64,000 bases of DNA from Escherichia phage vB_EcoM_E9.1 (PP886230), one strand, 5' to 3'; shown: positions 4,044-61,303, numbered from the stretch's first letter. Notes: generated from the sequence alone by a model not told the origin. A program made the numbers and translations.

Positions 4044-4251
4044 GATGTGGTGGTGTCATGGTGTATATAACGTGTATGTAAATGGTAGATATAAAATGTC
4101 TAGTACCTATGCAAGACGTGTTAATGCGAACAACCAAGTTGATGCTGCTTGTGAGATCATTGAGTGGTATGCTGAGTTCAATGCACCTGACTATATGTAC
4201 GAAATAGTTACAATAAATGTTGTACAAATCGATACATCTTTGATACAATAA
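4036..4251 (+). CDS. hypothetical protein (71 aa)
   Basis: ORF. Confidence 0.45.
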   Translation: MTKMWWCHGVYNVYVNGRYKMSSTYARRVNANNQVDAACEIIEWYAEFNAPDYMYEIVTINVVQIDTSLIQ

Positions 4252-43428: not shown

Positions 43429-43620
43429 ATGTATAAAAACTTCTATATAAGTAAACTAAAAGAAAATGAACAAGTATGGATTAGATCTATAATTCCACTG
43501 GCATTTAATAGATATGCATTTAACAGATGTACCGAGATTGCTATAGACCCTTATAATATTAAAGAGAATGTACAGTATAATCAGTACTACTATATCTTAA
43601 TGCTTATATATAGAAAGTAA
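43429..43620 (+). CDS. small-paralog family member (last)
   Basis: MYKNFYISKL...FNRCTEIAID...LMLIYRK. Confidence 0.6.
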   Translation: MYKNFYISKLKENEQVWIRSIIPLAFNRYAFNRCTEIAIDPYNIKENVQYNQYYYILMLIYRK

Positions 43621-43639
43621 TTAAACACATAGAGACAGG

Positions 43640-43715
43640 GGAAGCTCCTAGTGAACAACCTTTATGTACAGGCGAATTGTTAAAATTCAGCCTGGACAAA
43701 TGCGATCACTAGGAT
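43640..43715 (+). other. long imperfect inverted repeat (possible RNA structure or terminator)
   Basis: ggggaagctcctagtga ... tcactaggattctcccc enclosing an inner caggc/gcctg stem. Confidence 0.4.
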
Positions 43716-44265
43716 TCTCCCCAGGCTAAACCCCGTAATCATAGGTAGTCATAAGTAATCATATATAAACATTTATATGAGCACCGTAGAATCACAGAAT
43801 GATTATATATGATTCAGTACTGATTAGTATAGACAAGATTGCTCAAGAATGCACGGAAATGTGTGTGAATGATTCAGTACTGATATGCCACTAAGTAGGC
43901 AGAGGAAGTCTGCCGTACTTTGTAGTTTCCAAGCTCCTTTTCCATTTTGTAAATTACATCAAATGTAATCAAAAGTAATCACGCAATGATTAGTACTGAA
44001 TTATTACTTTCACCTTAATTACAATTACCCTTTTACCCTTCGGGGTAAAATTCAATTACCCCTTGAGGCTCCAGCAAAAAGTTGGTTAGTACTCCATCCT
44101 AAATCTCGATCCTAAAAATTTTGGAGTACCTATGAAATAAAAGTTGGATCTTCGAAAGTTGAAATTTACGTTGGGACGTTTATGATTTGTGGGATATAAT
44201 GATGTTTGTAGACGGGTAGTTCTCAAGAATATCAGTACTGAATGGTGAAAGAAAGTTATTGACAT

Positions 44266-46403: not shown

Positions 46404-46670
46404 ATGAATATTAAGTATTTTGCGACGCGTGAACAAGCTCGGATCGCCGCTCGCCAGGACGGGGCAACGTTTAAAGATATGGGCGTACAATCGGAACGTG
46501 GTAAACGTTGGGCCATTGTAAAGCGTAGTACCGCCAGATCATTACAGTACTGGTTAGCGGCCTTAAAAAGTCCCGATAGTGTATCGCGTCGAGTGGTAGA
46601 AATAAAGCTCGACCGAAAGGGCAACCGCGTGACCGTGTACCGTACTAAAAAGATTGCAGTACTTGAATAA
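46404..46670 (+). CDS. hypothetical protein; paralog of 58621 ORF
   Basis: shared KYFATREQARIAAR..TFKDMG..DRKGNRVTVY motifs. Confidence 0.6.
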   Translation: MNIKYFATREQARIAARQDGATFKDMGVQSERGKRWAIVKRSTARSLQYWLAALKSPDSVSRRVVEIKLDRKGNRVTVYRTKKIAVLE

Positions 46671-46677
46671 AAAGTAC

Positions 46678-46736
46678 TTGCAAACTATGTTTAAAGGCGT
46701 ATAATGTTTTACATCGAGAGCGGGAACTCTTCCCGC
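46678..46736 (+). promoter_or_regulatory. PeSL-like cassette
   Basis: TTGCAA .. TATAAT .. GCGGGAActcTTCCCGC. Confidence 0.6.
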
Positions 46737-46757
46737 CTATAACCTGGAGTAATAAAA

Positions 46758-46988
46758 ATGACTAATATGTATATGACTGAAGTTAAAACCGTAAAAGATA
46801 CTACCACGAATAAAACTACTTACTTACAGCGGATCTGTGGTGTATGGCAACGTATCAGCAAATCAAAGTACTTTAAATTAACATCATATGCAAACCGTTC
46901 TGATTCATTCAGTACTGAAATAAAAGGTAATAAAGTACACCAATACGGCACTTATTATTATTACAGCCTGGACGCGATTGCAGTATAA
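46758..46988 (+). CDS. hypothetical protein (76 aa)
   Basis: promoter-hairpin cassette upstream; RBS ggag. Confidence 0.55.
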   Translation: MTNMYMTEVKTVKDTTTNKTTYLQRICGVWQRISKSKYFKLTSYANRSDSFSTEIKGNKVHQYGTYYYYSLDAIAV

Positions 46989-47237
46989 GCAGTTTACAAA
47001 TCTTTACAATTGCCGGTATTGACTTATTTTGTCAGTACTGGCATAATGTATTCATTGGCAGATAAGCCGTAGCCCATAGGGTGCGGGAGTGTATCTATAG
47101 AAAAATTAGTTTAGTATAGTTACAATTGTGCACCCGGTGGGTTAGCTGTTGTCATGGGGTATATTATGCCAGTACTTGATAATGCTGTCAATACTTTTTT
47201 TTACTATCCAGTACAGAAAACTATTTTTAAAAAGTAC

Positions 47238-47384
47238 TTGCAAACTATGTTTAAAGGCGTATAATGTTTTACATCAGGACGGGGGAACGAAATAAGTAAC
47301 TTCCCGTTAAGTAGCCCAGGAGTAAGGCACACGAAAAACTCCCCTGATAAAATAGTTTGACAAATGTTTTTAAAAGCGTATAAT
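47238..47384 (+). promoter_or_regulatory. dual-promoter module with conserved inter-promoter element (copy 1)
   Basis: TTGCAA..TATAAT (47238-47265), ~73-nt element caggacggggg...cccctg, then TTGACA..TATAAT (47357-47384). Confidence 0.55.
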
Positions 47385-47416
47385 ACTTACATCAACTACT
47401 GAATGAGGGTTACAAA

Positions 47417-48028
47417 ATGAAAACTATCACTACTACTACTTTCGTTATGGATTTTTCTGAATTGAACGCAGAACAAAAAACGTCAGCTATCGAACTGGTT
47501 CGGGAACGTGAAAAAAACTCAAACGACAATTATTTTTCTGAAAGTGAAATTGAATACTATAAAGAAACAGTACTACCGGAATATGGCATTAATGACGCTG
47601 AAATACAATTCAGTGGCTTTTGGTCCCAGGGTGACGGTGCATCAATCAGTACTGACCACGTTGACGCAGTGAAGTTTTTACGCAAGGTAAGAGCATTAAC
47701 TAAGTATCGCTCAATCCGTCACTTGCTGAATGAAGATGATTTGGCGATGAGTGTAAAGCGTTCGCACTCCCACTACTCGCATGAGAATACTGTAAGCGGG
47801 TACATTGAATCGGCTTACACTGATTTAACCGCAAAACAAGAAACGTTAGTTAATGAGCTTGAGGAACTACTCACTGATACTATTCGTGAATTGTCCCGCA
47901 AGTTGTACCGTGATTTAGAGAATGCATATGAGGATCAATTCACTACTGAAAACATTACGGCACTGATTGAGGGTAACGAGTATCAATTCAATGTTATTGA
48001 TGGCGTAGTGGAATCAATCGAATATTAA
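47417..48028 (+). CDS. hypothetical protein (203 aa)
   Basis: downstream of dual-promoter module; RBS gaggg. Confidence 0.6.
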   Translation: MKTITTTTFVMDFSELNAEQKTSAIELVREREKNSNDNYFSESEIEYYKETVLPEYGINDAEIQFSGFWSQGDGASISTDHVDAVKFLRKVRALTKYRSIRHLLNEDDLAMSVKRSHSHYSHENTVSGYIESAYTDLTAKQETLVNELEELLTDTIRELSRKLYRDLENAYEDQFTTENITALIEGNEYQFNVIDGVVESIEY

Positions 48029-48040
48029 TTTAAAAAGTAC

Positions 48041-48099
48041 TTGCAAACTAAGTTTAAAAGCGTATAATACTTTATATCGAGAGCGGGAATAGTTCCCGC
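48041..48099 (+). promoter_or_regulatory. PeSL-like cassette
   Basis: TTGCAA .. TATAAT .. GCGGGAAtagTTCCCGC. Confidence 0.6.
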
Positions 48100-48120
48100 T
48101 ACTAATGAGGAATACTACAA

Positions 48121-48285
48121 ATGAATACTTTTACCTTCGCTCAATTGAACGCCCTGGATGTATTGTCTGATGCTTTGCGGGATGCAACTGAAAGCGGTTT
48201 ATTTGACAATGTTGACATTCACCCTGATGTAATTAATAATTTTTGTGATGCTATCGCAGAAGTACTGGAAGATCTAAAAAAATAA
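48121..48285 (+). CDS. hypothetical small protein (54 aa, not in track)
   Basis: ATG after promoter-hairpin cassette and RBS gagg. Confidence 0.5.
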   Translation: MNTFTFAQLNALDVLSDALRDATESGLFDNVDIHPDVINNFCDAIAEVLEDLKK

Positions 48286-48295
48286 TAGAAAGTAC

Positions 48296-48355
48296 TTGCA
48301 ATTAGTTTTTAGTACTGTATAATGTTTTACATAGAGGGGAGAAATGGTTCTCCCT
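48296..48355 (+). promoter_or_regulatory. PeSL-like cassette
   Basis: TTGCAA .. gtactgTATAAT .. GGGGAGAAatggTTCTCCC. Confidence 0.6.
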
Positions 48356-48373
48356 GGTAATGAGGAAAATACA

Positions 48374-48595
48374 ATGGCTAATATCACTACTCTTTCCCAA
48401 CTGGAAGCACTGGTTAAATCTATGCGGGAACATGCCGACAATATCGGCGTAAAAGATCCAGCCGTTTGCTTCTGCGACGAATTGAATGATGATACCCTGG
48501 TAATAGCAGAAGTCCAGGACGTTTCTAACTATTCCTCGCGTTACACTGGCGGCGTAGCAAATAAAGGTGACTTCTGTTTATACCTTACCAAATAA
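48374..48595 (+). CDS. hypothetical protein
   Basis: internal ATG (MANITTLSQ) after RBS; cassette upstream. Confidence 0.55.
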   Translation: MANITTLSQLEALVKSMREHADNIGVKDPAVCFCDELNDDTLVIAEVQDVSNYSSRYTGGVANKGDFCLYLTK

Positions 48596-48763
48596 CAACG
48601 CGGGGAGATAATAACTCCCCGTTACTTTTTCAGTACTGAATCATTTAATAGACGGATCTCGGCACCCGGTGGGTTAGTGACTGTTTCGTCTTGATGTAGT
48701 AATTATGCCAGTACTGGATGCACTTGTCAACAACTATTTTTCAAATACTTTTTATTAAAATAC

Positions 48764-48817
48764 TTGCTAATAGTTTTTAAACGCGTATAATGTTTTGCAT
48801 AGGGGGAGCGGTTCCCC
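48764..48817 (+). promoter_or_regulatory. PeSL-like cassette
   Basis: TTGCTA .. TATAAT .. GGGGAgcgGTTCCCC. Confidence 0.55.
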
Positions 48818-48838
48818 TGGTAACTAAGGAATAATAAA

Positions 48839-49075
48839 ATGCTTGAACAAATCAAATCAACGTCTGCGAATGTAACGGGAACGGTTGTACACTTTACTAG
48901 TGATGAATCGCGGGGCGTTCCCTATTGTGCTGTACATGTAAACACTGATGGCAACTACTGGTTTACGGTTTACGGATCATATTCATTTGGACGACCAGGG
49001 CATCAAAAAATTCTGGATAAAGTACAGCCAACGGGTAAAAATATCACGGCTGAAATGTTTTATAAAAAATCATAA
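48839..49075 (+). CDS. hypothetical protein (78 aa)
   Basis: cassette upstream; RBS aagga. Confidence 0.55.
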   Translation: MLEQIKSTSANVTGTVVHFTSDESRGVPYCAVHVNTDGNYWFTVYGSYSFGRPGHQKILDKVQPTGKNITAEMFYKKS

Positions 49076-49080
49076 AGTAC

Positions 49081-49140
49081 TTGATAATAGTTTTTAGTAC
49101 TGTATAATATTTTACATCGCAAGGGGGTAATGGTTCCCCC
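49081..49140 (+). promoter_or_regulatory. PeSL-like cassette
   Basis: TTGATA .. gtactgTATAAT .. GGGGGTAAtggTTCCCCC. Confidence 0.55.
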
Positions 49141-49160
49141 TGGTAACTAAGGATAATCAA

Positions 49161-49460
49161 ATGAAAGTTGCATTCATCGCCCTGGCTTTATCTGTTTCCT
49201 CTTTTGCTGTTAATGCGTCGTTAGATGTAAGTAGTGAAAAATTCATTCAGTGCACTGTAGCAATGACAGATGAAAGTACTGGCGAGATTGTATTAAAGGA
49301 TCTGGAGATTCAGCCGGAAGCATTTAAAAACGGCCCGTTCCATGAAGAAGACGAAAACGGTAGCACAACAATTTATTATGATGCCAGTACTAAACGCGGG
49401 TCGGTCACTGTTATGGATACTGAGAAAGTAACTCATACTGGCGTTATTAATTGCCGTTGA
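49161..49460 (+). CDS. secreted protein (signal peptide)
   Basis: N-terminus MKVAFIALALSVSSFAVNA. Confidence 0.6.
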   Translation: MKVAFIALALSVSSFAVNASLDVSSEKFIQCTVAMTDESTGEIVLKDLEIQPEAFKNGPFHEEDENGSTTIYYDASTKRGSVTVMDTEKVTHTGVINCR

Positions 49461-49481
49461 TAGATACTACGGGGTAACATC

Positions 49482-49712
49482 ATGACTAAGCGAATTGTTT
49501 TACTTAACGAAAGCAGTACTACACAACTACTTAACGCCGTGCATTATGATATTGAAACGAGCGTTAATCTTATCAGTACTGTAGTACTGTTGGACACTGG
49601 AAAGGTCGCCAATGATAAAGCGATTGCAGGTATACTAACGGATCTTGAGCCTGGTAGCAGTGCACCAATAACGTTAAATGGTAAAGTGTTTAATATTTTA
49701 CTCACTGATTAA
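49482..49712 (+). CDS. hypothetical protein (76 aa)
   Basis: ORF followed by intrinsic terminator. Confidence 0.55.
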   Translation: MTKRIVLLNESSTTQLLNAVHYDIETSVNLISTVVLLDTGKVANDKAIAGILTDLEPGSSAPITLNGKVFNILLTD

Positions 49713-49718
49713 GTACAT

Positions 49719-49742
49719 AGCCCACCTGGTGGGCTTTTTTGT
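49719..49742 (+). terminator. intrinsic terminator
   Basis: agcccacctggtgggct + T-run. Confidence 0.7.
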
Positions 49743-49943
49743 TTTTGTAGTATCGTAGTACTGAGATACTTTGAAAATAGTTTTAAAAAAGTAGTTGACA
49801 TTACCGCAGAAAAGCGTAGAATGTATTACATCAAGACGGGGAGCACTAAGTAGACCGCCAGTAAGTCGAACGAAAAACTGGACACGTCGAGAAAACTTTG
49901 ATACACTAATAAACGTAAACTAAACTTTAATTGAGGATTTATA

Positions 49944-50426
49944 ATGGCTAATGTAAAATCATTCATCAAAGCACTGGTAGCAAATGAAACTAACGTCGCG
50001 GCTGAGATCCTGGCTGAACTGGATAACGATACCATGAAAGCGGTACGCAATAATTTTAACATCGCGTACAGTACTGCGAAAGAACTACAAGCAAATAAAG
50101 CGGCAGAAATTGAAGCGGCAAAGGCGGCCCGTGAAGCAGAACTACAAGCAACAATCGAAAGTATCCAGGCGGCGGTGTCTGGATTGGATCTGGAAGTGGT
50201 TGTGGAAATGGCACATAAAGCCCTGGCGGTTAAGTATGGTGAAGATAAGCCAGAATCTAAACCCAAAAAATGGATTCAGGAACGCGTAGCGGTAGTACTG
50301 GACAACGGGGAAGAATATCTGATTCCGGTGCGTGGTAACTGTATTGCGGTAGTACTGGACGCTATCAAAGAAAGCGGTATGACTCGCGAGGAATGGATCG
50401 AAGCTCATCGCAAAGTTGAAGCATAA
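49944..50426 (+). CDS. hypothetical protein (160 aa), Ala/Glu-rich helical
   Basis: long 5' leader after promoter at ~49795; RBS gagga; terminator downstream. Confidence 0.6.
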   Translation: MANVKSFIKALVANETNVAAEILAELDNDTMKAVRNNFNIAYSTAKELQANKAAEIEAAKAAREAELQATIESIQAAVSGLDLEVVVEMAHKALAVKYGEDKPESKPKKWIQERVAVVLDNGEEYLIPVRGNCIAVVLDAIKESGMTREEWIEAHRKVEA

Positions 50427-50447
50427 CAATTAAAGTACTGAATCACT

Positions 50448-50473
50448 AGCCCACTGTATAAGTGGGCTTTTTT
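50448..50473 (+). terminator. intrinsic terminator
   Basis: agcccactgtataagtgggct + tttttt. Confidence 0.7.
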
Positions 50474-50637
50474 GTGTTTATCGTTTACCAGGCCACCAGC
50501 ACCGCCTAGAAACGATTCTAACGCATTAAACGGATTATCTGATGCATTGCCCTAGCTGGTGGCGTTAAGGCTGTAAGAACGCGATTGAGAGCGTTTAAAG
50601 TATTTTGCAAAAAGTAATAAAAAGTACTTGAACGATT

Positions 50638-50687
50638 AAGAGATTAGCGTATAATGTTTTACATCGAGAGGGGGAAACGGTTCTCCT
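50638..50687 (+). promoter_or_regulatory. PeSL-like cassette
   Basis: TTGAAC .. TATAAT .. GAGGGGGAAacggTTCTCC. Confidence 0.55.
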
Positions 50688-50710
50688 TCCAAATCAAAGG
50701 AATCAAAACA

Positions 50711-50938
50711 ATGGCTATTATCATTACTCGCGTATCTGGTACTACTGGCAACGAACAAGTAGTTGCAGTCATTACGAACAAGGCAGGTGCGGAATTGCAA
50801 AATGCAATGAATACCTGGGCCGTTAATGAGTTCGGTCAGTGGGCAAGTGTAGCATACATTGAAACCTATCAAGTGCCGTCGATTAGTTTAACTGATTTGG
50901 GCGTTGAGCGTATCCTTTGCCTTGATGAATTAAATTAA
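50711..50938 (+). CDS. hypothetical protein
   Basis: internal ATG (MAIIITRV) after RBS aagga. Confidence 0.55.
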   Translation: MAIIITRVSGTTGNEQVVAVITNKAGAELQNAMNTWAVNEFGQWASVAYIETYQVPSISLTDLGVERILCLDELN

Positions 50939-50946
50939 AAAAGTAC

Positions 50947-51006
50947 TTGCAAAGTAAATCGAATAAAGTATAATACATTACATCAAGGGGAGAAATGGTT
51001 CTCCCC
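50947..51006 (+). promoter_or_regulatory. PeSL-like cassette
   Basis: TTGCAA .. TATAAT .. GGGGAGAAatggTTCTCCCC. Confidence 0.6.
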
Positions 51007-51023
51007 ACTACAAGGAAACTAAA

Positions 51024-51236
51024 ATGGCTATCATTACTAAAATCAAAGTTAGTAAATCACTGGTTAAACTTGAAGAAGTGAAAGAAGGTTATAAAGTATC
51101 TTGGTGCGGTATGTATCGGACGTTCGCAGATATAGATGATGCGATCAATTATTACACTGACACGGTTAAAAACTTTGTTCGTGCTGATGTGGTTATGGCA
51201 GTGGCAACATATAAAGCATCAAAAGAAAGTAAGTAA
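51024..51236 (+). CDS. hypothetical protein; N-terminus resembles 54180 ORF
   Basis: MAII.K start; cassette upstream. Confidence 0.55.
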   Translation: MAIITKIKVSKSLVKLEEVKEGYKVSWCGMYRTFADIDDAINYYTDTVKNFVRADVVMAVATYKASKESK

Positions 51237-51317
51237 AAATATTATCACAGTACTATTGACATAGTTTGATAGTACTGGCATAATAACTTTTATCAAGACA
51301 ACTAAGAGGAAATTAAA

Positions 51318-51662
51318 ATGGCTAACATCAATACTATAGCAGCACAAAATATCAACCTGTCTTCTGTTGAAGTTGTACATATTGCCGCTCGGCGTTGGTT
51401 CCAGGCTTCATATGGTAACACTTATTTCTCTTTAAGTGTAGACGTAGAAATTGATGGTAATTTTATTGAAGTAGTAAACGTGCCGTTCCAATATGGATAC
51501 GGGGATCATTTTGACACTGTAGCAATGGAAGAATTTAGCAAGGTTATTAATATGGAAGGTAAAGAGTTTTTACGCGGTTCTTATCTTTCCCGTTTTTGCC
51601 GTGATAATAATATCACTGTTTATAGTTCTGTTAGTGATGTTAAACGCAAAAAAGATCTTTAA
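51318..51662 (+). CDS. hypothetical protein; paralog of 58202 ORF
   Basis: shared RW..GNTY...YGYG...VKRKKD motifs. Confidence 0.6.
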   Translation: MANINTIAAQNINLSSVEVVHIAARRWFQASYGNTYFSLSVDVEIDGNFIEVVNVPFQYGYGDHFDTVAMEEFSKVINMEGKEFLRGSYLSRFCRDNNITVYSSVSDVKRKKDL

Positions 51663-51742
51663 TTAGCTTTACTTTATGCAGATACTTTGATATAGTGTCT
51701 GCATAGGGGAAAGAAATTAAATTAACTTAAGAGGATAGTATA

Positions 51743-52012
51743 ATGAAAAATATCAGTACTTTAATCGATGCAGGTACTCATGTTCGTCGGTCTATGGTTG
51801 CAACCAGTACTACAAAACAAGTAGCGAGCGGTTATCTTGTATTTGTGCACGATGGTAAACTCCTGGAACGTTCAATCAATTTTGATGTTAAAAACAATTG
51901 CCGTTTTATTATCTTTAAGCGTGAGCAATATAAAATTGATTTACCAGCAAAGCCCATTAGTGGGGCGTACAACGTGCAATCATTGTTTGAACGTCAACCA
52001 TACACCTATTAA
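51743..52012 (+). CDS. hypothetical protein (89 aa)
   Basis: RBS agagga. Confidence 0.5.
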   Translation: MKNISTLIDAGTHVRRSMVATSTTKQVASGYLVFVHDGKLLERSINFDVKNNCRFIIFKREQYKIDLPAKPISGAYNVQSLFERQPYTY

Positions 52013-52063
52013 TCAAAACATCGTTAGCGGTCGATTCAGGCCGCTTATATTGGGGATTATACC

Positions 52064-52336
52064 ATGAACGTTAATCAAGTACTGAATGAGATCGAAAGCA
52101 TCATTAAACCGATGAAGCGTACTGATGCTATGTTAACACCGGAAGAATGCCGCCTTTATGAGCGTTACAGCGTCGAACAAGTCCAGGCAATGGCTATGGC
52201 TACCCCAGCCGTTAAACCGCCTGAGAATGCGTTACAGGACGTTACAGGGGATTATATCATCAATCCAGTACTAGGGAAGATGGCTGCAATCACCGAAGAT
52301 CAACAAGACTACTTAAGCCAGTACTTAAAAGGTTAA
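52064..52336 (+). CDS. hypothetical protein (90 aa)
   Basis: ORF with RBS. Confidence 0.5.
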   Translation: MNVNQVLNEIESIIKPMKRTDAMLTPEECRLYERYSVEQVQAMAMATPAVKPPENALQDVTGDYIINPVLGKMAAITEDQQDYLSQYLKG

Positions 52337-52341
52337 TTAAT

Positions 52342-52551
52342 ATGCTTACTGTACAGGATAAGATCGACATCTTAAAGGTTAATATGTATGTGATTGATGC
52401 AGAACCTGGTAAAGTATTTGCATACGATGATAGTACTGTAAGCGATTTCTACTATAGCCAGGCCGTGGGGGATCTTTCTGTACAGTCGGTTATTGAAAAC
52501 GTAGTTAATGCAGCGTATGAGCATTTACTTTCAAATAGTACTTGCAATTAG
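52342..52551 (+). CDS. hypothetical protein (69 aa)
   Basis: ORF. Confidence 0.5.
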   Translation: MLTVQDKIDILKVNMYVIDAEPGKVFAYDDSTVSDFYYSQAVGDLSVQSVIENVVNAAYEHLLSNSTCN

Positions 52552-52600
52552 TTTTTAAACGCGTATAATGTTTTACATCGAGAGCGGGAATAGTTCCCGC
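52542..52600 (+). promoter_or_regulatory. PeSL-like cassette
   Basis: TTGCAA .. TATAAT .. GCGGGAAtagTTCCCGC. Confidence 0.6.
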
Positions 52601-52621
52601 CTCACTTTTAAGGAATATGAA

Positions 52622-52768
52622 ATGAAAGCATCAAAAAAGAGTACTAACAAGAAAGCACGTTCAACCTTAGATGGGGTATTCCCTTTACGTTTCGTTGATG
52701 AAGTGGTTTCCTACCCGCCTGGCCTTACTCCTGAGATGGTAGAAAGTTTGCGTAAATCTAAAAAATAG
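52622..52768 (+). CDS. hypothetical small basic protein
   Basis: internal ATG (MKASKKSTNK) after RBS aagga. Confidence 0.5.
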   Translation: MKASKKSTNKKARSTLDGVFPLRFVDEVVSYPPGLTPEMVESLRKSKK

Positions 52769-52771
52769 TAC

Positions 52772-52831
52772 TTGCAATTAGTTTTTAGTACTGTATAATG
52801 TTTTACATGAAGGGGAGAAATGATTCTCCCC
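52772..52831 (+). promoter_or_regulatory. PeSL-like cassette
   Basis: TTGCAA .. gtactgTATAAT .. GGGGAGAAatgaTTCTCCCC. Confidence 0.6.
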
Positions 52832-52849
52832 AATAACAGGAGAAACAAA

Positions 52850-53002
52850 ATGAAACAATACAACGCTCGGTTTGATGTTACTATCGGTAACGGCAAAGGT
52901 CAATTCTCTTTCAGTACTCGCCGCAGTTATACAGAAAACTTCCTGCGTAATTGTGCATTGACCGCCGCTCAAATTAAACATTATTTTCAGGCTAAAAAAT
53001 GA
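52850..53002 (+). CDS. hypothetical small protein
   Basis: internal ATG (MKQYNARF) after RBS aggaga. Confidence 0.5.
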   Translation: MKQYNARFDVTIGNGKGQFSFSTRRSYTENFLRNCALTAAQIKHYFQAKK

Positions 53003-53088
53003 GATCATTAGCTTATTACAGTTCGGCCCTGGTCGGTGCATTGATCGCGGCGTTGTTAGTAACCTATCTATTCTTTATGGTGATTTAA
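52999..53088 (+). CDS. small hydrophobic peptide (29 aa)
   Basis: ATGA overlap with upstream stop; single TM-like helix; not in track. Confidence 0.4.
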   Translation: MRSLAYYSSALVGALIAALLVTYLFFMVI

Positions 53089-53226
53089 ATGAATCCTAAC
53101 GGTATAATTTACAGTACTCCTAAAACGAAAGCAGACAAGGTAAACGCTAAAAAAGCGAAAGTAAAGGAGTACATCAAACAAGGAATGACACGAAAGGCGG
53201 CGATTCTAAAAGCTAAAAATAAATGA
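53089..53226 (+). CDS. small Lys-rich peptide (45 aa)
   Basis: TAAATG overlap; not in track. Confidence 0.35.
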   Translation: MNPNGIIYSTPKTKADKVNAKKAKVKEYIKQGMTRKAAILKAKNK

Positions 53227-53230
53227 AAAA

Positions 53231-53264
53231 GTGGTTGACTTCGGTCAGCCATTTTGCTATTATA
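53231..53264 (+). terminator. terminator/promoter hybrid element (second-half variant)
   Basis: TGGTTGACttcgGTCAGCCAtttt GC TATTAT. Confidence 0.55.
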
Positions 53265-53367
53265 TATTCATTGAGAGATAGCTCACTAGCCCACAGGGTG
53301 CAGGAGTGTATCTATTGTATAATGTTTGAGTACTGAAAACTATTTTAAAGTATTTGATAAAAAGTAC

Positions 53368-53426
53368 TTGCAAACTATCTCAATAAGCGTATAATGTTTT
53401 ACATCGCAAGGGGAAACGGTTTCCCC
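53368..53426 (+). promoter_or_regulatory. PeSL-like cassette
   Basis: TTGCAA .. TATAAT .. GGGGAAAcggTTTCCCC. Confidence 0.6.
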
Positions 53427-53446
53427 TAGTAATAAGGAAACGAATC

Positions 53447-53788
53447 ATGACTATCTCAATTGCTCAATCTAACTTTGAAAATGAAATCATCGCCCAGGCA
53501 CTGCGTTTAAATGATGGTCGGGCCGAAATCAATTACGGTTTCAATTCAGGCGGTTGTGAAAAATATCAGTACTTTGTAACGGCTGATGGCGGTGTACTGG
53601 GCATCAATACAGTTATTGTAAACATACAGAAAATTAATTTCAATGATCCAGACGATAGCCAGTTTTACATCACTGGCGTAGACGTGAACTATGAGGATGA
53701 CTCACTAACTGATGACCACACTGGCGAGAAGTTAGAAAGTGCATACGGTGAAGATGATTATCAGTCCGGTCCAGAAGATTTCGAATAA
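53447..53788 (+). CDS. hypothetical acidic protein (113 aa)
   Basis: cassette upstream; RBS aagga. Confidence 0.55.
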   Translation: MTISIAQSNFENEIIAQALRLNDGRAEINYGFNSGGCEKYQYFVTADGGVLGINTVIVNIQKINFNDPDDSQFYITGVDVNYEDDSLTDDHTGEKLESAYGEDDYQSGPEDFE

Positions 53789-53802
53789 TATTAAAAAATA
53801 GT

Positions 53803-53862
53803 TTGACAATAGATTATAGTACTGTATAATAGTTTACATCAAGGGGAGAAAAACTTCTCCCC
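53803..53862 (+). promoter_or_regulatory. PeSL-like cassette
   Basis: TTGACA .. gtactgTATAAT .. GGGGAGAAaaacTTCTCCCC. Confidence 0.6.
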
Positions 53863-53884
53863 ACTAACAGAGAGAGAAAACAAA

Positions 53885-54097
53885 ATGGCTAATATCCGGT
53901 CGAAATTAAAAAATGCAAAACAAGTTTTATTTTCAGATCATGAATACTTTAATAAAGATATTACAGGAGTTACAAGTATCAAGGAAGTAAAAGAAAAAAC
54001 CGGCGTTTTGTGTGATGTGCGATTAGTTGGGACATTTGGGAATAACGTGCTATATCGCTGTGGTGATTACAATTTTACACTGACTATCATTAACTAA
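53885..54097 (+). CDS. hypothetical protein (70 aa)
   Basis: cassette upstream; RBS agagag. Confidence 0.55.
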   Translation: MANIRSKLKNAKQVLFSDHEYFNKDITGVTSIKEVKEKTGVLCDVRLVGTFGNNVLYRCGDYNFTLTIIN

Positions 54098-54179
54098 AAA
54101 TATTATCACAGTACTATTGACATAGTTTGATAGTACTGACATAATAACTTTTATCAACTACACTACTAAGGAATTAAAA

Positions 54180-54359
54180 ATGGCTATCATCGCAAAAACT
54201 GAAATCATCGGCCTGGATTCTATCATCATGACGTTTGAAGATCAAAAAGGTATGTATGTGGTTTCCTATGGTGATTATGTTCGGGAGTATGAAACGGTAG
54301 ACGAAGCCTTTGAAAGTTACATTCGCCAGGTGAATAAAGCATACGACGACTACCGCTAA
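54180..54359 (+). CDS. hypothetical protein (59 aa, not in track)
   Basis: MAIIAKTEIIGLDS; promoter TTGACA..CATAAT upstream; RBS aagga. Confidence 0.5.
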   Translation: MAIIAKTEIIGLDSIIMTFEDQKGMYVVSYGDYVREYETVDEAFESYIRQVNKAYDDYR

Positions 54360-54458
54360 AATATATTACCAGTACTATTAAAGATATTGACAACGTTTGA
54401 TAGTACTGTATAATAAGTTTTATAAACAGTAGTTAACTTAACCTAAGAGAGAAATAAA

Positions 54459-54602
54459 ATGATCGCACTGGATTCATTCATCGACGCAGTACTGGCAAAA
54501 ACTGGCGAGGATCTGACCGCAGAACAATACGCGATGATCGAACAATGTCAACAGGACGGTAAATCGGTGAAAGATACTGTTAAGATTATCCGCAAGATGT
54601 AA
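54459..54602 (+). CDS. hypothetical small protein (47 aa, not in track)
   Basis: promoter plus RBS agagag; terminator hairpin downstream. Confidence 0.45.
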   Translation: MIALDSFIDAVLAKTGEDLTAEQYAMIEQCQQDGKSVKDTVKIIRKM

Positions 54603-54608
54603 GATTAT

Positions 54609-54637
54609 AGCCCACTGGTTAACGCTGGTGGGCTTTA
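54609..54637 (+). terminator. terminator hairpin containing a Chi octamer
   Basis: agcccactggttaacGCTGGTGGgcttt. Confidence 0.5.
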
Positions 54638-54707
54638 ATTCATTACCCTATACAATGCCAGTACTAAACCGTTTATCTCGTTAGAATGCGTTACAGGACG
54701 TTTACCA

Positions 54708-54905
54708 ATGATTAGCATGAAATCAGTACAAAAACAAATAGAAACATTATCAAAAATTAAACGTAAACAGTACTCCTTAGAATATACAATCAATGGTAAC
54801 TATCATCTAATGAAAGAAAATAATTTTATAGTCATTGATGAATCATTGCAAATCATTAGTATAGTACTGAAAGCATTAATCAATGACAGAAAAAAATTAA
54901 AATAA
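54708..54905 (+). CDS. hypothetical protein (65 aa)
   Basis: ORF. Confidence 0.45.
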   Translation: MISMKSVQKQIETLSKIKRKQYSLEYTINGNYHLMKENNFIVIDESLQIISIVLKALINDRKKLK

Positions 54906-55236
54906 ACTATTGACAATATCATCCAGCACTGGCATAATACTTACACCAAGACGAGAACGTCACTAACCCATAGGGTGCACAAATGTAACTGTATAATATT
55001 GATCAAAAAATGATCTGATCAATACTTGATCAATTTGCGTAAAGTAGTATAATTCTATGCAGTTGGTTAGACGAAAGGTTATGATTAGTAGTGCAAGTGT
55101 ATAAAAATTTTCATGGTGTATCGTTCCGCACATATGGGGATGAATATGTGGTATCATGTGGATTGGAAAAAGTAAGAACAAGTAATATTATTGTCGCATT
55201 ACAGTACTATAGTATTTTTATAATGAGGTTAAAATA

Positions 55237-55494
55237 ATGGCTGTAGGATTCGCGAAAGATGGGGCCGAGCAAGACGAGATTAACGCAGTGATTCAGGCCG
55301 CCGTTAACCACGCTAGAAAGCAAATTAACGCACAAATAGAATCACTGATACATTGCCTCGACTGCGGCGATATAATCCCTGAGAAACGACGCCAGGCCGT
55401 TAAGGGATGTAAGTACTGCATAACTTGCCAGGAGGATCATGATAGTACTTTTAAACGTCCCCCGCGTAATTGTTGGCATAGATCTATGAGATAA
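55237..55494 (+). CDS. TraR/DksA-family C4 zinc-finger protein
   Basis: CLDCGDIIPEKRRQAV..CKYCITCQE matches the TraR C-x2-C-x17-C-x2-C finger and basic PE.RR motif. Confidence 0.7.
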   Translation: MAVGFAKDGAEQDEINAVIQAAVNHARKQINAQIESLIHCLDCGDIIPEKRRQAVKGCKYCITCQEDHDSTFKRPPRNCWHRSMR

Positions 55495-55500
55495 AAAGTA

Positions 55501-55528
55501 TTGACAGTACTGAAAGATAGTGTATAAT
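55501..55528 (+). promoter_or_regulatory. sigma70-type promoter upstream of GNAT-like gene
   Basis: TTGACA - 16 nt - TG-TATAAT. Confidence 0.55.
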
Positions 55529-55557
55529 GTTTTATATCTTAACTGAGGATAGTAATC

Positions 55558-55914
55558 ATGGGAATACAACATATCACGCGTACTACTGACAATGGCGAGA
55601 TCACTGGCTATCAAGTACAGGGCAAAGTAGCACAATTGCAGTACTGGTTTGTGAAACGTGGAATCATTGCACCGGATCTTGATTATGACCGTGTAGCGTT
55701 TATTGATTCTCTTTATGTTGATCCTGATAGTCGGGGCAATGGTGAAGGTAACGAATTAATGAATGCCTTTATTGATGCCGCCGATGATTCAGATTGTATC
55801 ATTTTAGAATGCGATACGGGAGAAGATAACGCCTTTAATCTTAAAGAATGGTACGAAGGTTTCGGATTCGAGGTACTGATCGATAGTGAATATCCTATCA
55901 TGATTTTATCATAG
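55558..55914 (+). CDS. GNAT-like acetyltransferase domain protein
   Basis: LYVDPDSRGNGEGNELM resembles GNAT motif A (R-G-x-G-x-G); C-terminal YEGFGF. Confidence 0.5.
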   Translation: MGIQHITRTTDNGEITGYQVQGKVAQLQYWFVKRGIIAPDLDYDRVAFIDSLYVDPDSRGNGEGNELMNAFIDAADDSDCIILECDTGEDNAFNLKEWYEGFGFEVLIDSEYPIMILS

Positions 55915-55992
55915 TACTTGCATTTAGTTTTCAGTACTGTTATAGTACTTGCATCAAGGGGAAACATCTTCCCCTACTAAGAGGAAATAAAA

Positions 55993-56181
55993 ATGGAAAA
56001 CTTATCAAGTATTTTAGTACAAGATGATTTCGGTAATCCTGGAAGTGCTATCATTGTTCGGGGTAATAAAGCAACGTTTGTTATTGCTGGTGGACCAGTA
56101 CAGCGTAGCATTAAAAATAATGCTGTTACCATTAATAATGTACGCTATCGCTTAGATAAAGAATTGATTCATAAACTGTAA
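55993..56181 (+). CDS. hypothetical protein (62 aa)
   Basis: cassette upstream; RBS agagga. Confidence 0.55.
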   Translation: MENLSSILVQDDFGNPGSAIIVRGNKATFVIAGGPVQRSIKNNAVTINNVRYRLDKELIHKL

Positions 56182-56208
56182 TATTAATTTAATAGAGGAT
56201 AACAATAA

Positions 56209-56532
56209 ATGTACATTCATACTACTATCACAAAGGAAGTCCGTTGCCAGTTCGAAAGTATTCCGGGCGTATGTTTCATCACTGGTACGTTTTCCCCTGG
56301 TGATCGTGATAATCCAGTACTGTTACAATTACGCCATCCATCATGGGATAAAGCATTTGATCTACCGTTGAATGAATTCGCAACTACTGCTGAAAAGTAC
56401 ATTAAAAATATTCGCGAGAATGATCGACTATTCATTAATGCTTTTAGTGATTCCGCGTTAAGCGAGATCCACGGCGTATTGGTTGCAATCATGGAATCAA
56501 TGCAGAAAACTAAATTCAAACAAGGTGAATAA
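56209..56532 (+). CDS. hypothetical protein (107 aa)
   Basis: RBS gagga. Confidence 0.55.
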   Translation: MYIHTTITKEVRCQFESIPGVCFITGTFSPGDRDNPVLLQLRHPSWDKAFDLPLNEFATTAEKYIKNIRENDRLFINAFSDSALSEIHGVLVAIMESMQKTKFKQGE

Positions 56533-56538
56533 AAACTA

Positions 56539-56598
56539 TTGACAATGCAACCCAGTACTGTATAATAGTTTACATGAAGGGGAGAAATGATTCTCCCC
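56539..56598 (+). promoter_or_regulatory. PeSL-like cassette
   Basis: TTGACA .. gtactgTATAAT .. GGGGAGAAatgaTTCTCCCC. Confidence 0.6.
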
Positions 56599-56615
56599 AC
56601 TGAGAGGAAAGAAAA

Positions 56616-56828
56616 ATGCAAGGTCAACTAATCGTTCGTAAATGGTCTGATACTAACGAAAAACCGTGGGATGTACAATACATCGGACCGGATGGGGTAT
56701 CACGTTATCAGCCTGGCGTAACGCATAGTACTGAGCAATATGCCGCCGCTCACCGCGAACGCCTGTTAGAATCCATGAAACAGGGATTCTGTGAAAAATT
56801 CATTCAAGATCATTGGCTGAAAGATTAA
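56616..56828 (+). CDS. hypothetical protein (70 aa)
   Basis: cassette upstream; RBS gagagga. Confidence 0.55.
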   Translation: MQGQLIVRKWSDTNEKPWDVQYIGPDGVSRYQPGVTHSTEQYAAAHRERLLESMKQGFCEKFIQDHWLKD

Positions 56829-56845
56829 TAGAAGGAGTACAGCTT

Positions 56846-56938
56846 ATGCAAATGAATCCGATGATTATTGTTTTAGCTGTACTTATGATCATTCATGCAA
56901 TTGTAGAAGTATTAACGCAATCAGGAGTAATAAAATGA
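56846..56938 (+). CDS. small hydrophobic peptide (30 aa)
   Basis: RBS aggag; single TM-like helix; not in track. Confidence 0.4.
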   Translation: MQMNPMIIVLAVLMIIHAIVEVLTQSGVIK

Positions 56939-57108
56939 TTCAAGTAGAATTATCAGTACTGAAAGATCTGTTTTATCGGTTAGGTACTACTGGAGAGTAT
57001 CCTAAAAGTGATACCGCAAAACTTTTTGTATCACTCGACTTATGGCAACGCGAACAATTAGTAATGTCCTGGCGTAAAGGTAAAGCAGATCGCGAGGTGA
57101 AAGCATGA
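56935..57108 (+). CDS. hypothetical small protein (57 aa)
   Basis: ATGA overlap; not in track. Confidence 0.4.
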   Translation: MIQVELSVLKDLFYRLGTTGEYPKSDTAKLFVSLDLWQREQLVMSWRKGKADREVKA

Positions 57109-57254
57109 AAGAATTCTTATTCGAAGTAGTGTTTCAAGGTGTCGGTAGTAACCAACTGATTCGCTCAAGTGGTTACAATGTTAACCAGGCATGGAATAAC
57201 ATTAAACAAATGTACCCGAACGCTATCACCTATCGCAACCCGAAAGAAGTTTAA
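57105..57254 (+). CDS. hypothetical small protein (49 aa)
   Basis: ATGA overlap; not in track. Confidence 0.4.
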   Translation: MKEFLFEVVFQGVGSNQLIRSSGYNVNQAWNNIKQMYPNAITYRNPKEV

Positions 57255-57267
57255 AAATATTTGAAAA

Positions 57268-57303
57268 AGGGATTGACTCCGGTCAGTCCCTTTGCTATTA
57301 TAT
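57268..57303 (+). terminator. terminator/promoter hybrid element (second-half variant)
   Basis: GGGATTGACtccgGTCAGTCCCttt GC TATTAT. Confidence 0.55.
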
Positions 57304-57391
57304 ACGCATAGAAACAATTCAGCCCACCGGGTGCATAAATGTATCTATTATATGCTGGTGGCTAGTACTGAAAACTATTTTTAAAAAGTAC

Positions 57392-57535
57392 TTGCATTGT
57401 ATTTAGAATCAAGTATAATGTTTTACATCAGGACGGGGAACGAAACAAGTAACCCCGTTAAGTAGTCCAGGAGTAAGACATACGAAAACCTCCCCTGATA
57501 AAATAGTTTGACAATAGAAATTAAACGAGTATAAT
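57392..57535 (+). promoter_or_regulatory. dual-promoter module with conserved inter-promoter element (copy 2)
   Basis: TTGCAT..TATAAT, element caggacgggg...cccctg (~57429-57496), TTGACA..TATAAT. Confidence 0.55.
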
Positions 57536-57567
57536 ACTTACATCAACCACTGATAAGGAAACATAAA

Positions 57568-57843
57568 ATGCGGATTCTACTGACAGCTAACGAAATCGAA
57601 CAAGTACTGACTACTAACCTGGAAGACTGGAAACGTGAAGCAGATATCCAGGCGGTTCAATGGTTAAATGATAAGTTAACGCCGGATGACTTAAGCAAGA
57701 TTGTAGATCCTCAATTCTACGAAGATATCCACGACACCGCGTTAAGCGTCGAGGATGTACTAGATAAGCACTTTATTGATACTGATTTGCAGGTTTACGG
57801 TCGTAAAAACTTTATCACTATTCACGACATTTACAATAATTAA
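57568..57843 (+). CDS. hypothetical protein (91 aa)
   Basis: downstream of dual-promoter module; RBS aagga. Confidence 0.55.
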   Translation: MRILLTANEIEQVLTTNLEDWKREADIQAVQWLNDKLTPDDLSKIVDPQFYEDIHDTALSVEDVLDKHFIDTDLQVYGRKNFITIHDIYNN

Positions 57844-61242: not shown

Positions 61243-61303
61243 TTGCATTGTAGTTAGATTAACGTATAATGTTTTACATAGAGCGGGGGAATAGTTCTCC
61301 CGC
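61243..61303 (+). promoter_or_regulatory. PeSL-like cassette
   Basis: TTGCAT .. TATAAT .. GCGGGGGAAtagTTCTCCCGC. Confidence 0.6.

Follow-up and report, generated by a model that had tools for sequence, protein, structure and literature searches.

In Escherichia phage vB_EcoM_E9.1 (PP886230), a stretch of 64,000 nucleotides (nt), analysed as one strand from 5' to 3' and called the window throughout, carries three copies of a compact structured RNA element that lie directly behind predicted sigma70 promoters. Sequence comparison places this element in a mobile, promoter-proximal family of pseudoknotted RNAs that includes the interval between the host promoters A1 and A2 of phage T7. Its carriers are all virulent phages of enterobacteria whose infection begins with transcription by the host polymerase. 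As far as we checked, the element is undescribed; as an RNA family it is new, of a broad kind already known, that of the promoter-proximal structured RNAs of phage early transcripts. The sequence data show the family, its fold and its mobility, and place it behind promoters that in the window are predicted.

A covariance model of the conserved core (R1) finds exactly three copies in the 64 kilobases (kb), at 47307-47344 (copy A), 57458-57495 (copy B) and 49846-49883 (copy C), with scores of 50-53 bits, the next best match in the window reaching 13 bits; a 30-nt pattern of the core gives 3 matches versus 0.00 expected. Each copy begins 2-3 nt past a predicted sigma70 start, and A and B are then followed by a perfect consensus promoter. 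An earlier, sequence-only reading of this DNA had described A and B as two modules of tandem consensus promoters at 47238-47384 and 57392-57535. Their placement is as claimed, and the downstream promoters do match the consensus fully (12/12), whereas the upstream ones are not strict consensus promoters (10/12 in A, below the cut-off of the promoter scanner in B). The related leader that it saw before gene 49944 is copy C, of which the core stands behind a TTGACA-16-TAGAAT promoter.

Outside the window, copies of the A/B type with ~90-99% identity occur in 44 phage records, among which are the Stephanstirmvirinae phages muut and EmilieFrey and the Vequintavirinae phage A7_1. In these two subfamilies presence is sporadic, at about 90% identity, and in the three phages named the element again lies between two promoters and is followed by other downstream genes; the promoters of A7_1 are of another type (TTGACA...TAAGAT). 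Diverged copies were found in Munch-like, K64-1/RaK2-like and Erwinia jumbo phages, in Hallingskeid and in LIMEzero-like podophages. T7 has one copy per genome, scoring 61.6 bits with R1, of which the core (UAAGUAGACAG-CCUG-AUAAGUCGCACGAAAAA-CAGG, 551-596) falls between two annotated host promoters, A1 (start 498) and A2 (626); the whole element spans nt 536-606, which corresponds to +38 to +108 of the A1 RNA, and the core also matches Yersinia phage phiA1122 at 553-587. A blastn search with the T7 segment returned 485 T7-group records, all named hosts being Enterobacterales, a pattern scan of IMG/VR added ~45 further T7-like genomes, and a metagenome scan yielded mostly the same phages again, plus one diverged jumbo contig and chance matches. 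The family spans at least five phage lineages. A second copy in CMSTMSU, with a deletion inside stem P3, was left out because the record is marked 'UNVERIFIED' and has fragmented open reading frames (ORFs). When 185,579 bacterial and archaeal genomes were searched by pattern and then by model, 34 of the 35 pattern matches failed the model and one passed with a T7-type sequence, and no genuine copy on a bacterial chromosome was found. E. coli genomes contain no match to the element, and a host homologue or mimicry is thus unsupported.

None of the retrieved phage records annotates the element as RNA, some of them overlaying it with a 'hypothetical protein' or a 'promoter'. Coding sequences for a 'hypothetical protein' that run across the noncoding element (e.g. 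in OR699181, PQ330092 and OR896852) are likely over-annotation. Full-text literature searches, including literal sequences, gave no description of the element and only the T7 fragment as a template, most subscription-journal papers, older T7 work included, lying outside their scope. A 2025 paper treats T7 A1-A2-A3 as a 'non-coding internalisation signal' and the region as promoters, not as an RNA structure (PMC11863960). The neighbouring A2-A3 interval of T7 (626-750) shows by eye a long hairpin, with GUGCC...GGCAC enclosing GGUG...CACC, and an A-rich run before the A3 -35; it has no match to model R1.

The core follows the consensus UAAGUAG-NC-NN-[P3]-(N)UAAG-N'C-NN-ACGAA-NAN-[P3'], in which the 5' flank of stem P3 (4-5 base pairs, bp), GUAG-N-C, pairs with the P3 loop (G-N'-C, then N-NAC) to form stem S1, leaving a conserved A-rich third loop, GAAAA. 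Covariation supports the modelled H-type pseudoknot as the structure of this invariant core. Over 25 distinct core sequences 93.8% of the cells are paired, compared to 81.4 +/- 1.4 after shuffling and 21-32% when the partners are shifted along the sequence; at the centre of S1, where the pair is free to vary, A:U occurs in 17, U:A in 5 and C:G in 2 sequences, with 1 mismatch, and P3 changes on both sides at 4/5 of its pairs (GGAG/CUCC, CCAG/CUGG, CCUG/CAGG, CUUG/CAAG, to which sequence L108 adds GUCAG/CUGAC). The three window copies alone display all three S1 pair types (C:G in A, U:A in B, A:U in C) and two P3 versions (GGAG/CUCC in A and B versus CCAG/CUGG in C), copy C carrying compensatory changes in both stems relative to A and B. 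Between A and B, the C->U change at 47315/57466 is accompanied by G->A at 47327/57478, its partner in the pseudoknot stem, and the two copies also differ in hairpin P2 by changes that preserve pairing, as the sequence-only reading had noticed. The unpaired and tertiary nucleotides are nearly invariant from T7 to the 350-kb jumbo phages.

Around this core, nested folding of A, B and the Stephanstirmvirinae and Vequintavirinae copies gives one common three-way junction with helices P1 (AUCAGG/CCUGAU), P2 (ACGGGG/CCCCGU) and P3 (GGAGU/ACUCC), and P1, P2 and S1 are also recovered, independently, when RNAalifold is given eight sequences of the junction type. The fold z-scores of the + strand are -1.4 to -3.9, such modest values being expected because nested folding ignores the pseudoknot, and the - strand folds no better than shuffles; G-U pairs occur on the + strand only, and the RNA strand is therefore +. 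Hairpin P2 is optional. Although indels and substitutions have altered it in B, 121Q, muut and A7_1, its pairing is retained there; copy C, K64-1 and Hallingskeid lack it. The closing helix takes eight versions that keep a fixed position with varying sequence (AUCAGG/CCUGAU, CGGGG/CCCCG, GCGGCG/UGUCGC, GCGACG/CGUUGC, ACCGAAGC/GUUUCGGU and others). Per sequence it is not significant, single helices of 4-8 bp being common in shuffles; taken jointly and anchored at the P3 end, the closing helices reach a summed length of 46 versus 32.6 +/- 2.9, with 0/2000 shuffles as high.

In the T7 group a second pseudoknot is very well supported by sequence variation. Five bases of the loop of an upstream hairpin pair with the tail just after P3, each of the five pairs showing 7-10 double changes, four of them without mismatch and one with a single mismatch (examples are GUCAA:UUGAC, GUCAUC:GAUGAC, GUCGGU:ACCGAC and GAUUAG:CUAAUC). 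In the junction-type lineages the tail pairs with the 5' flank instead, so that throughout the family the segment after P3 folds back as a clamp, which is weakest in copy C. The earlier proposal, that transcripts of the upstream promoter begin with such an element, to be checked by folding with covariation, is supported: core, second T7 pseudoknot and closing helices form a fold that is conserved and covaries across many phages, behind starts that in the window are predicted.

These same data bear on the possibility that the element works as DNA, as an UP element or protein site for the downstream promoter, or that it is a non-functional scar of a cassette without an ORF. Its A-rich 3' part does lie upstream of the second -35, the tail in T7 is the A2 -35 hexamer, and a Shine-Dalgarno-like AGGAG without ATG, GTG or TTG behind it would suit a scar. 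Elsewhere, however, the tail reads GAUGAC, ACCGAC, CUAAUC or GUGAC and the next -35 comes further on, at spacings that vary from 2 to 46 nt; since the tail covaries with the hairpin loop even where it is not a -35, it is the pairing that is conserved and not the promoter. Both versions are also contradicted by the compensatory changes, among them G-U pairs confined to a single strand, and by the conservation across the lineages; we consider them barely credible and, on the covariation, largely refuted.

In 57 of ~62 genuine distinct copies a promoter-like site lies 2-46 nt after P3 (the promoter regular expression missed at least the Hallingskeid promoter). In the three window copies and most junction types the element begins at +3, whereas in the T7 group a simple 5' hairpin comes first and the start is at ~+38; the copies of T7, the Vequintavirinae and the jumbo phages are flanked by different promoter types. 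The window promoters and starts are predicted, T7 A1 being the only one with an annotated start site. On these comparisons the conserved unit is the RNA and not the promoter pair, and the 'dual-promoter module' proposed by the sequence-only reading does not survive as a unit, the promoters being exchangeable. Nor do A and B represent a simple block duplication. They are alike in their promoter hexamers, in the sequence transcribed first and in the element itself, and the repeat is to be seen as a mosaic because the promoter spacers differ and the upstream promoters match different neighbouring cassettes: that of A is a variant identical to the cassette promoter at 46678-46705, that of B a variant of the promoters at 61265 and 63109.

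How such mosaics may arise is illustrated by phage muut, in which the block of element, downstream promoter and gene of copy B recurs with 92-97% identity. Homology of muut to ~150 phages of its own family stops within the -10/initial transcribed sequence of the upstream promoter, and the Asteriusvirus homology (92-97%) starts at that same point (L001 2490-2524; MN850573 about 73050-73083). This junction shows directly that cassettes have been exchanged across phage families that are unrelated. In the PeSL (promoter-early stem-loop) cassettes of T4-type phages, recombination between repeated promoters shuffles modules (Arbiol et al. 2010, PMC2839356). The cassettes described here would likewise recombine via near-identical promoter and initial transcribed sequences, the second promoter being that of the next cassette, so that a unit of promoter and RNA payload would stand ahead of one of promoter and ORF. 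Recombination at promoters would account both for the 'dual promoter' look and for the spread of the element among phage families.

The exchangeable surroundings also affect a reading of the element as a cis-acting leader of the downstream gene, be it a 5' stabiliser against RppH and RNase E, a processing signal or a riboregulator that distinguishes the long from the short transcript. For such a role speak the closing helix, which buries the 5' end from nt +3, the simple 5' stem-loop that all ordinary cassettes in the region have at the same place, and the AGGAG that is paired to CUCC in the A/B form. The downstream genes, however, differ among A, B, C, muut, EmilieFrey, A7_1 and T7, AGGAG/CUCC is elsewhere replaced by CCAG/CUGG or CCUG/CAGG, and a simple hairpin suffices for the other cassettes, T7 A1 having such a hairpin besides the element. 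The attenuator considered by the sequence-only reading must be dropped: there is no terminator or U-run between element and gene (no terminator-like site in 47266-47416 or 57420-57567, the tail being AUAAAAUAG), and pairing with the ribosome-binding site is not conserved because the downstream genes differ between copies and phages. Altogether we regard a leader function in cis as decidedly improbable.

The explanation to which we lean, tentatively and with slightly less than even confidence, is that the element is the payload of its own early cassette, a noncoding compact RNA of ~60-80 nt. Host sigma70 polymerase would transcribe it as the extreme 5' end of the upstream-promoter transcript, from starts placed by prediction, and the RNA, freed by processing or serving as a stable 5' domain, would act without translation, stoichiometrically and in the immediate-early phase, by decoying or modulating some host factor that serves transcription, RNA decay or defence. 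A stand-alone RNA is favoured because it has its own promoter, is indifferent to downstream content and has a raised copy number in the terminal repeat, where the two to three copies of the jumbo phages suggest, and would serve, dosage. Binding to a conserved host macromolecule is suggested by the near-invariance of the unpaired bases and by the named hosts, which are all enterobacterial; the RNA may act in trans. The T7 A1 leader is cut off by RNase III at R0.3, and T7 deletions reaching the A1-A2 interval (D111) are viable, which would fit an accessory role. That we are dealing with a new, protein-free immediate-early RNA class, a double pseudoknot made by the host polymerase seconds after entry and disabling a conserved enterobacterial factor (of defence, RNA decay or the polymerase), or else with a new self-cleaving ribozyme, is possible although we judge it unlikely.

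Several observations weigh against an RNA payload that acts on a host factor in trans. The copies have no discrete 3' end or terminator, the window start sites are predicted, the binding of a host factor is a matter of inference, and sequence by itself does not separate action in trans from action in cis. The near-universal presence in enterobacterial T7-like phages fits a target in the core machinery better than a patchy defence system, while in Stephanstirmvirinae and Vequintavirinae the element turns up only sporadically, as would suit an accessory role, and this pattern conflicts with the near-universal T7-like one. As for the fold, the count of pairs with double changes in the 25-sequence core test does not exceed that of shuffles (126/500), and EmilieFrey is a natural variant with a C.A mismatch in S1. 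Moreover, the retrieval patterns fixed 16-20 core bases, and covariation is therefore informative at the free positions only, and related sequences inflate the shuffle statistics.

The main rival is a cis-acting modifier of the put kind, in which the nascent pseudoknot would make its own polymerase resist pausing, Rho and terminators. Transcription from the first promoter would then run through the cassette array, and in T7 it would aid transcription-driven genome entry. The element resembles HK022 putL in size and placement (~70 nt, just 3' of an early promoter, in two copies, with a compact, triplex-containing fold; PMC9378689); put acts without a phage protein and its two copies are diverged too. 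It does so by binding the zinc-binding domain of the polymerase beta' subunit, whereby pausing and termination are suppressed. In addition, all carriers use the host polymerase for their early genes, the element lies in the first-entering genome end, the named hosts are all Enterobacterales, and terminator-like hairpins are found downstream of each window copy, at 48600, 49719, 50448 and 59039. Against this stands the fold, since put consists of two tandem stem-loops in a V shape without a pseudoknot, belongs to a temperate lambdoid phage and is not followed by another promoter (PMC9378689). The HK022 early region is dissimilar as well: R1 run on HK022 20000-40751 with filters off gives 7.9 bits at best, and a put homologue was rejected. 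Transcripts from the next promoter in those 57 copies, like those from T7 A2 and A3, would not contain the element, which makes a service to early transcription in general unlikely. T7 A1 transcripts, furthermore, terminate normally at TE in vitro. Weighing these points, we find a put-like action improbable, and we retain the RNA payload acting on a host factor as the preferred reading.

Compared with the window element, the T7 A1-A2 interval contains the same RNA family, promoter-proximal and with a strong second host promoter immediately after it; it differs in its loop/tail pseudoknot (GUCAA:UUGAC, versus a 5'-3' closing helix in the window), its start at +38 versus +3 and its single copy. 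The PeSL likeness lies in the surroundings, which are arrays of a sigma70 promoter and a stem-loop before small ORFs of unknown function, whereas PeSL stem-loops are described as terminators and those of the window, in a RaK2-like jumbo phage, lack a U-run; the element cassette, moreover, carries an RNA payload and not an ORF (PMC2839356). With phage RNA counter-defence (pseudo-ToxI, RNA anti-CRISPRs) the element shares, as an analogy only, the idea of a multi-copy, mobile noncoding RNA that titrates a host protein. By eye, we know of no sequence relation to ToxI or to CRISPR repeats. Both of its stems are short, the first loop has 1-2 nt and an A-rich loop is placed along the first stem; in this topology the element appears to resemble the preQ1-I and SAM-II aptamers and the leader pseudoknot of T4 gene 32. 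It differs from these in an extra 3-4-nt UAA junction, in other conserved bases and in the lack of an expression platform and of an Rfam match.

This topology brings up two further candidates, a small ribozyme of a new kind that cleaves itself and an aptamer that senses a ligand. Small ribozymes and pseudoknot riboswitch aptamers are typically compact, and a double pseudoknot of 60-80 nt in which ~20 nucleotides, some of them unpaired, are invariant would suit either; the 3' end that is missing could come from self-cleavage. Among Rfam ribozymes and riboswitches, however, none matches it, even at E <= 10, an aptamer would lack its expression platform, and the strand topology differs, presumably, from that of the hepatitis delta virus type. 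We therefore consider this reading very improbable. Rfam 15 gave zero matches in the window at the gathering score, and at E <= 10 the window segment 47230-47420 and T7 480-930 returned noise only (Methylobacterium-1 at 17 bits, Ysr197 at 12.5 bits), so that no family was matched.

Other identities were tried and set aside. ARAGORN finds 0 genes for transfer RNA or transfer-messenger RNA in the window. A small protein gene is rejected, as the AGGAG is not followed by a start codon and no reading frame survives the indels of 1 and 2 nt that separate A from B. A boxA- or nut-like site beside the element was sought in the window, where the matches are at chance level only and none is in the early region. 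In other carriers we observed a boxA-like CGCUCUUUAACAA (CGCUCUUUA(A/U)ACAAUCUGG), which comes 15-30 nt past the pseudoknot in LIMEzero-like phages (LIMEzero 925-940; L041 about 4165-4180) and at ~812 in T7 (812-824, after A3). Likenesses to 16S ribosomal RNA 1492-1510 (AAGUCGUAACAAGGUA) and of the sarcin-ricin loop to the initial transcribed sequence CGAGAGGGAC are probably coincidental.

Table 1. Coordinates of the three element copies and their promoters in the window (promoters and starts predicted; helix names P1-P3 and S1 as in the text)
Feature	Position	Strand	Details
Copy A, upstream promoter (promoter P1)	47238..47265	+	-35 TTGCAA 47238-47243, 16-nt spacer, -10 TATAAT 47260-47265; predicted start A47271 or A47273
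Copy A, structured RNA, three-way-junction form	47273..47348 (about 47271-47352)	+	minimum free energy fold, RNAalifold, anchored-helix test
Copy A, closing helix P1	47273-47278 with 47343-47348	+	AUCAGG with CCUGAU
Copy A, variable hairpin P2	47279..47307	+	ACGGGGG 47279-47285 with UUCCCGU 47301-47307; 15-nt loop
Copy A, core H-type pseudoknot	47308..47342	+	R1 match 47307-47344, 49.8 bits; covariation
Copy A, stem S1	47311-47316 with 47326-47328 and 47330-47332	+	GUAGCC with GGC and CAC
Copy A, stem P3	47319-47322 with 47339-47342	+	GGAG with CUCC; A-rich loop GAAAAA 47333-47338
Copy A, downstream promoter (promoter P2)	47357..47384	+	TTGACA-16-TATAAT, 12/12; without 5' stem-loop
Copy B, upstream promoter (promoter P1)	57392..57419	+	-35 TTGCAT 57392-57397, -10 TATAAT 57414-57419; predicted start near A57425
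Copy B, structured RNA	57427..57499 (about 57425-57503)	+	R1 match 57458-57495, 51 bits; fold z-score -2.5
Copy B, helices P1 and P2	57427-57432 with 57494-57499; 57433-57438 with 57453-57458	+
Copy B, core	57459-57493	+	S1 centre U57466:A57478; P3 57470-57473 with 57490-57493
Copy B, downstream promoter (promoter P2)	57508..57535	+	12/12; drives 91-amino-acid gene 57568-57843 (predicted)
Copy C, promoter	49795..49822	+	TTGACA-16-TAGAAT; predicted start near A49828; directly 3' of terminator-like hairpin 49719-49735
Copy C, minimal form without hairpin P2	49830..49901	+	core 49846-49883, R1 53.2 bits
Copy C, stems S1 and P3	49850-49855 with 49865-49867; 49858-49861 with 49878-49881	+	S1 GUAGAC with GUC; P3 CCAG with CUGG
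Copy C, candidate closing pairs	49835-49838 with 49885-49888	+	GACG with CGUC; 4 bp, weakest clamp among the copies

The downstream promoter of copy A precedes a gene for a 203-amino-acid protein at 47417-48028 (phrog_5162, function unknown), and copy C is followed by a weak promoter-like TTGATA-17-TAAACT and then by gene 49944-50426. The 8 proteins flanking the element have no Pfam hits, and their PHROGs are all of 'unknown function'. The TTGCAT of the upstream promoter of B fell below the scanner cut-off; its A-tract/'agtac' context matches ~25 other cassettes.

The three copies are embedded in an array of ~25 stereotyped cassettes on the + strand, from ~44.2 to 64 kb of the window, each consisting of an UP-like A-tract, 'agtacTTGCAA' or 'TTGACA', a 16-17-nt spacer, TATAAT, 'gttttACATCGAGAG...', a 5' stem-loop of the GGGGAGAA-NNNN-UUCUCCCC type without a U-run and, last, a small ORF with its Shine-Dalgarno sequence. 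There are 95 promoter-like sites versus 52 +/- 8 expected, and the GC skew flips near 44 kb. E. coli jumbo phages of the PBECO4/121Q/phAPEC6 group (Asteriusvirus, RaK2-like) match window 46500-50500 at 92-98% identity. Judged by related jumbo phages with determined ends, the region is the first-entering early region, transcribed by the host polymerase, because in them copy A is 3.4-3.7 kb away from the left end and belongs to what is annotated as the direct terminal repeat. Window 43600-44260, with its switch of GC skew and coding strand and its dense short repeats (tgattcagtactga, aatcat/taatca), is, going by positions in related records, probably where the genome physically ends on the left or where its direct terminal repeat starts.

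Some further features of the array were noted on the way. The initial transcribed sequence AUCGAGAGGG of the window cassettes is identical to that of T7 A1. A palindrome, CAGTACTG, occurs 63 times in the whole window versus 0.86 expected (e.g. at 43815, 43875, 44233, 44273, 44416 and 44442), often fills the promoter spacer directly before the -10 ('tagtactgTATAAT') and is densest at 41.2-45.5 kb, where the genome probably ends; a protein may bind it, or it may be a site of modification. A 28-nt hairpin enclosing a -35-like TTGACT, followed by GCTATTATAT, is present in two copies (53228-53265 and 57266-57303), of which the stems differ by compensatory changes (GTGG/CCAT vs GGGA/TCCC). Each is followed by a CCCAC(A/C)GGGTG hairpin, and the second copy is located just upstream of element copy B.

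As a transcription template, T7 A1 with its leader is one of those most widely used by molecular biologists, and the A1-A2 interval carries a strongly covarying double pseudoknot with the same core as in jumbo and rV5/phAPEC8-type phages. The element matters wherever T7 A1 leader fragments serve as 'neutral' templates or early regions are refactored, and it merits annotation in phage genomes. With 60-80 nt, the genetics of T7 and hundreds of natural variants, it offers a tractable new RNA family and, at the same time, shows clearly how promoter recombination can carry RNA and regulatory cassettes from one phage family to another that is unrelated. If it is indeed a protein-free immediate-early RNA of a new class, or a new ribozyme, such an RNA would have been hidden in the T7 A1 leader for fifty years, traded on promoter cassettes among podophages, 145-kb myophages and 350-kb jumbo phages, and might constitute a translation-free layer of host takeover in the first seconds of infection.

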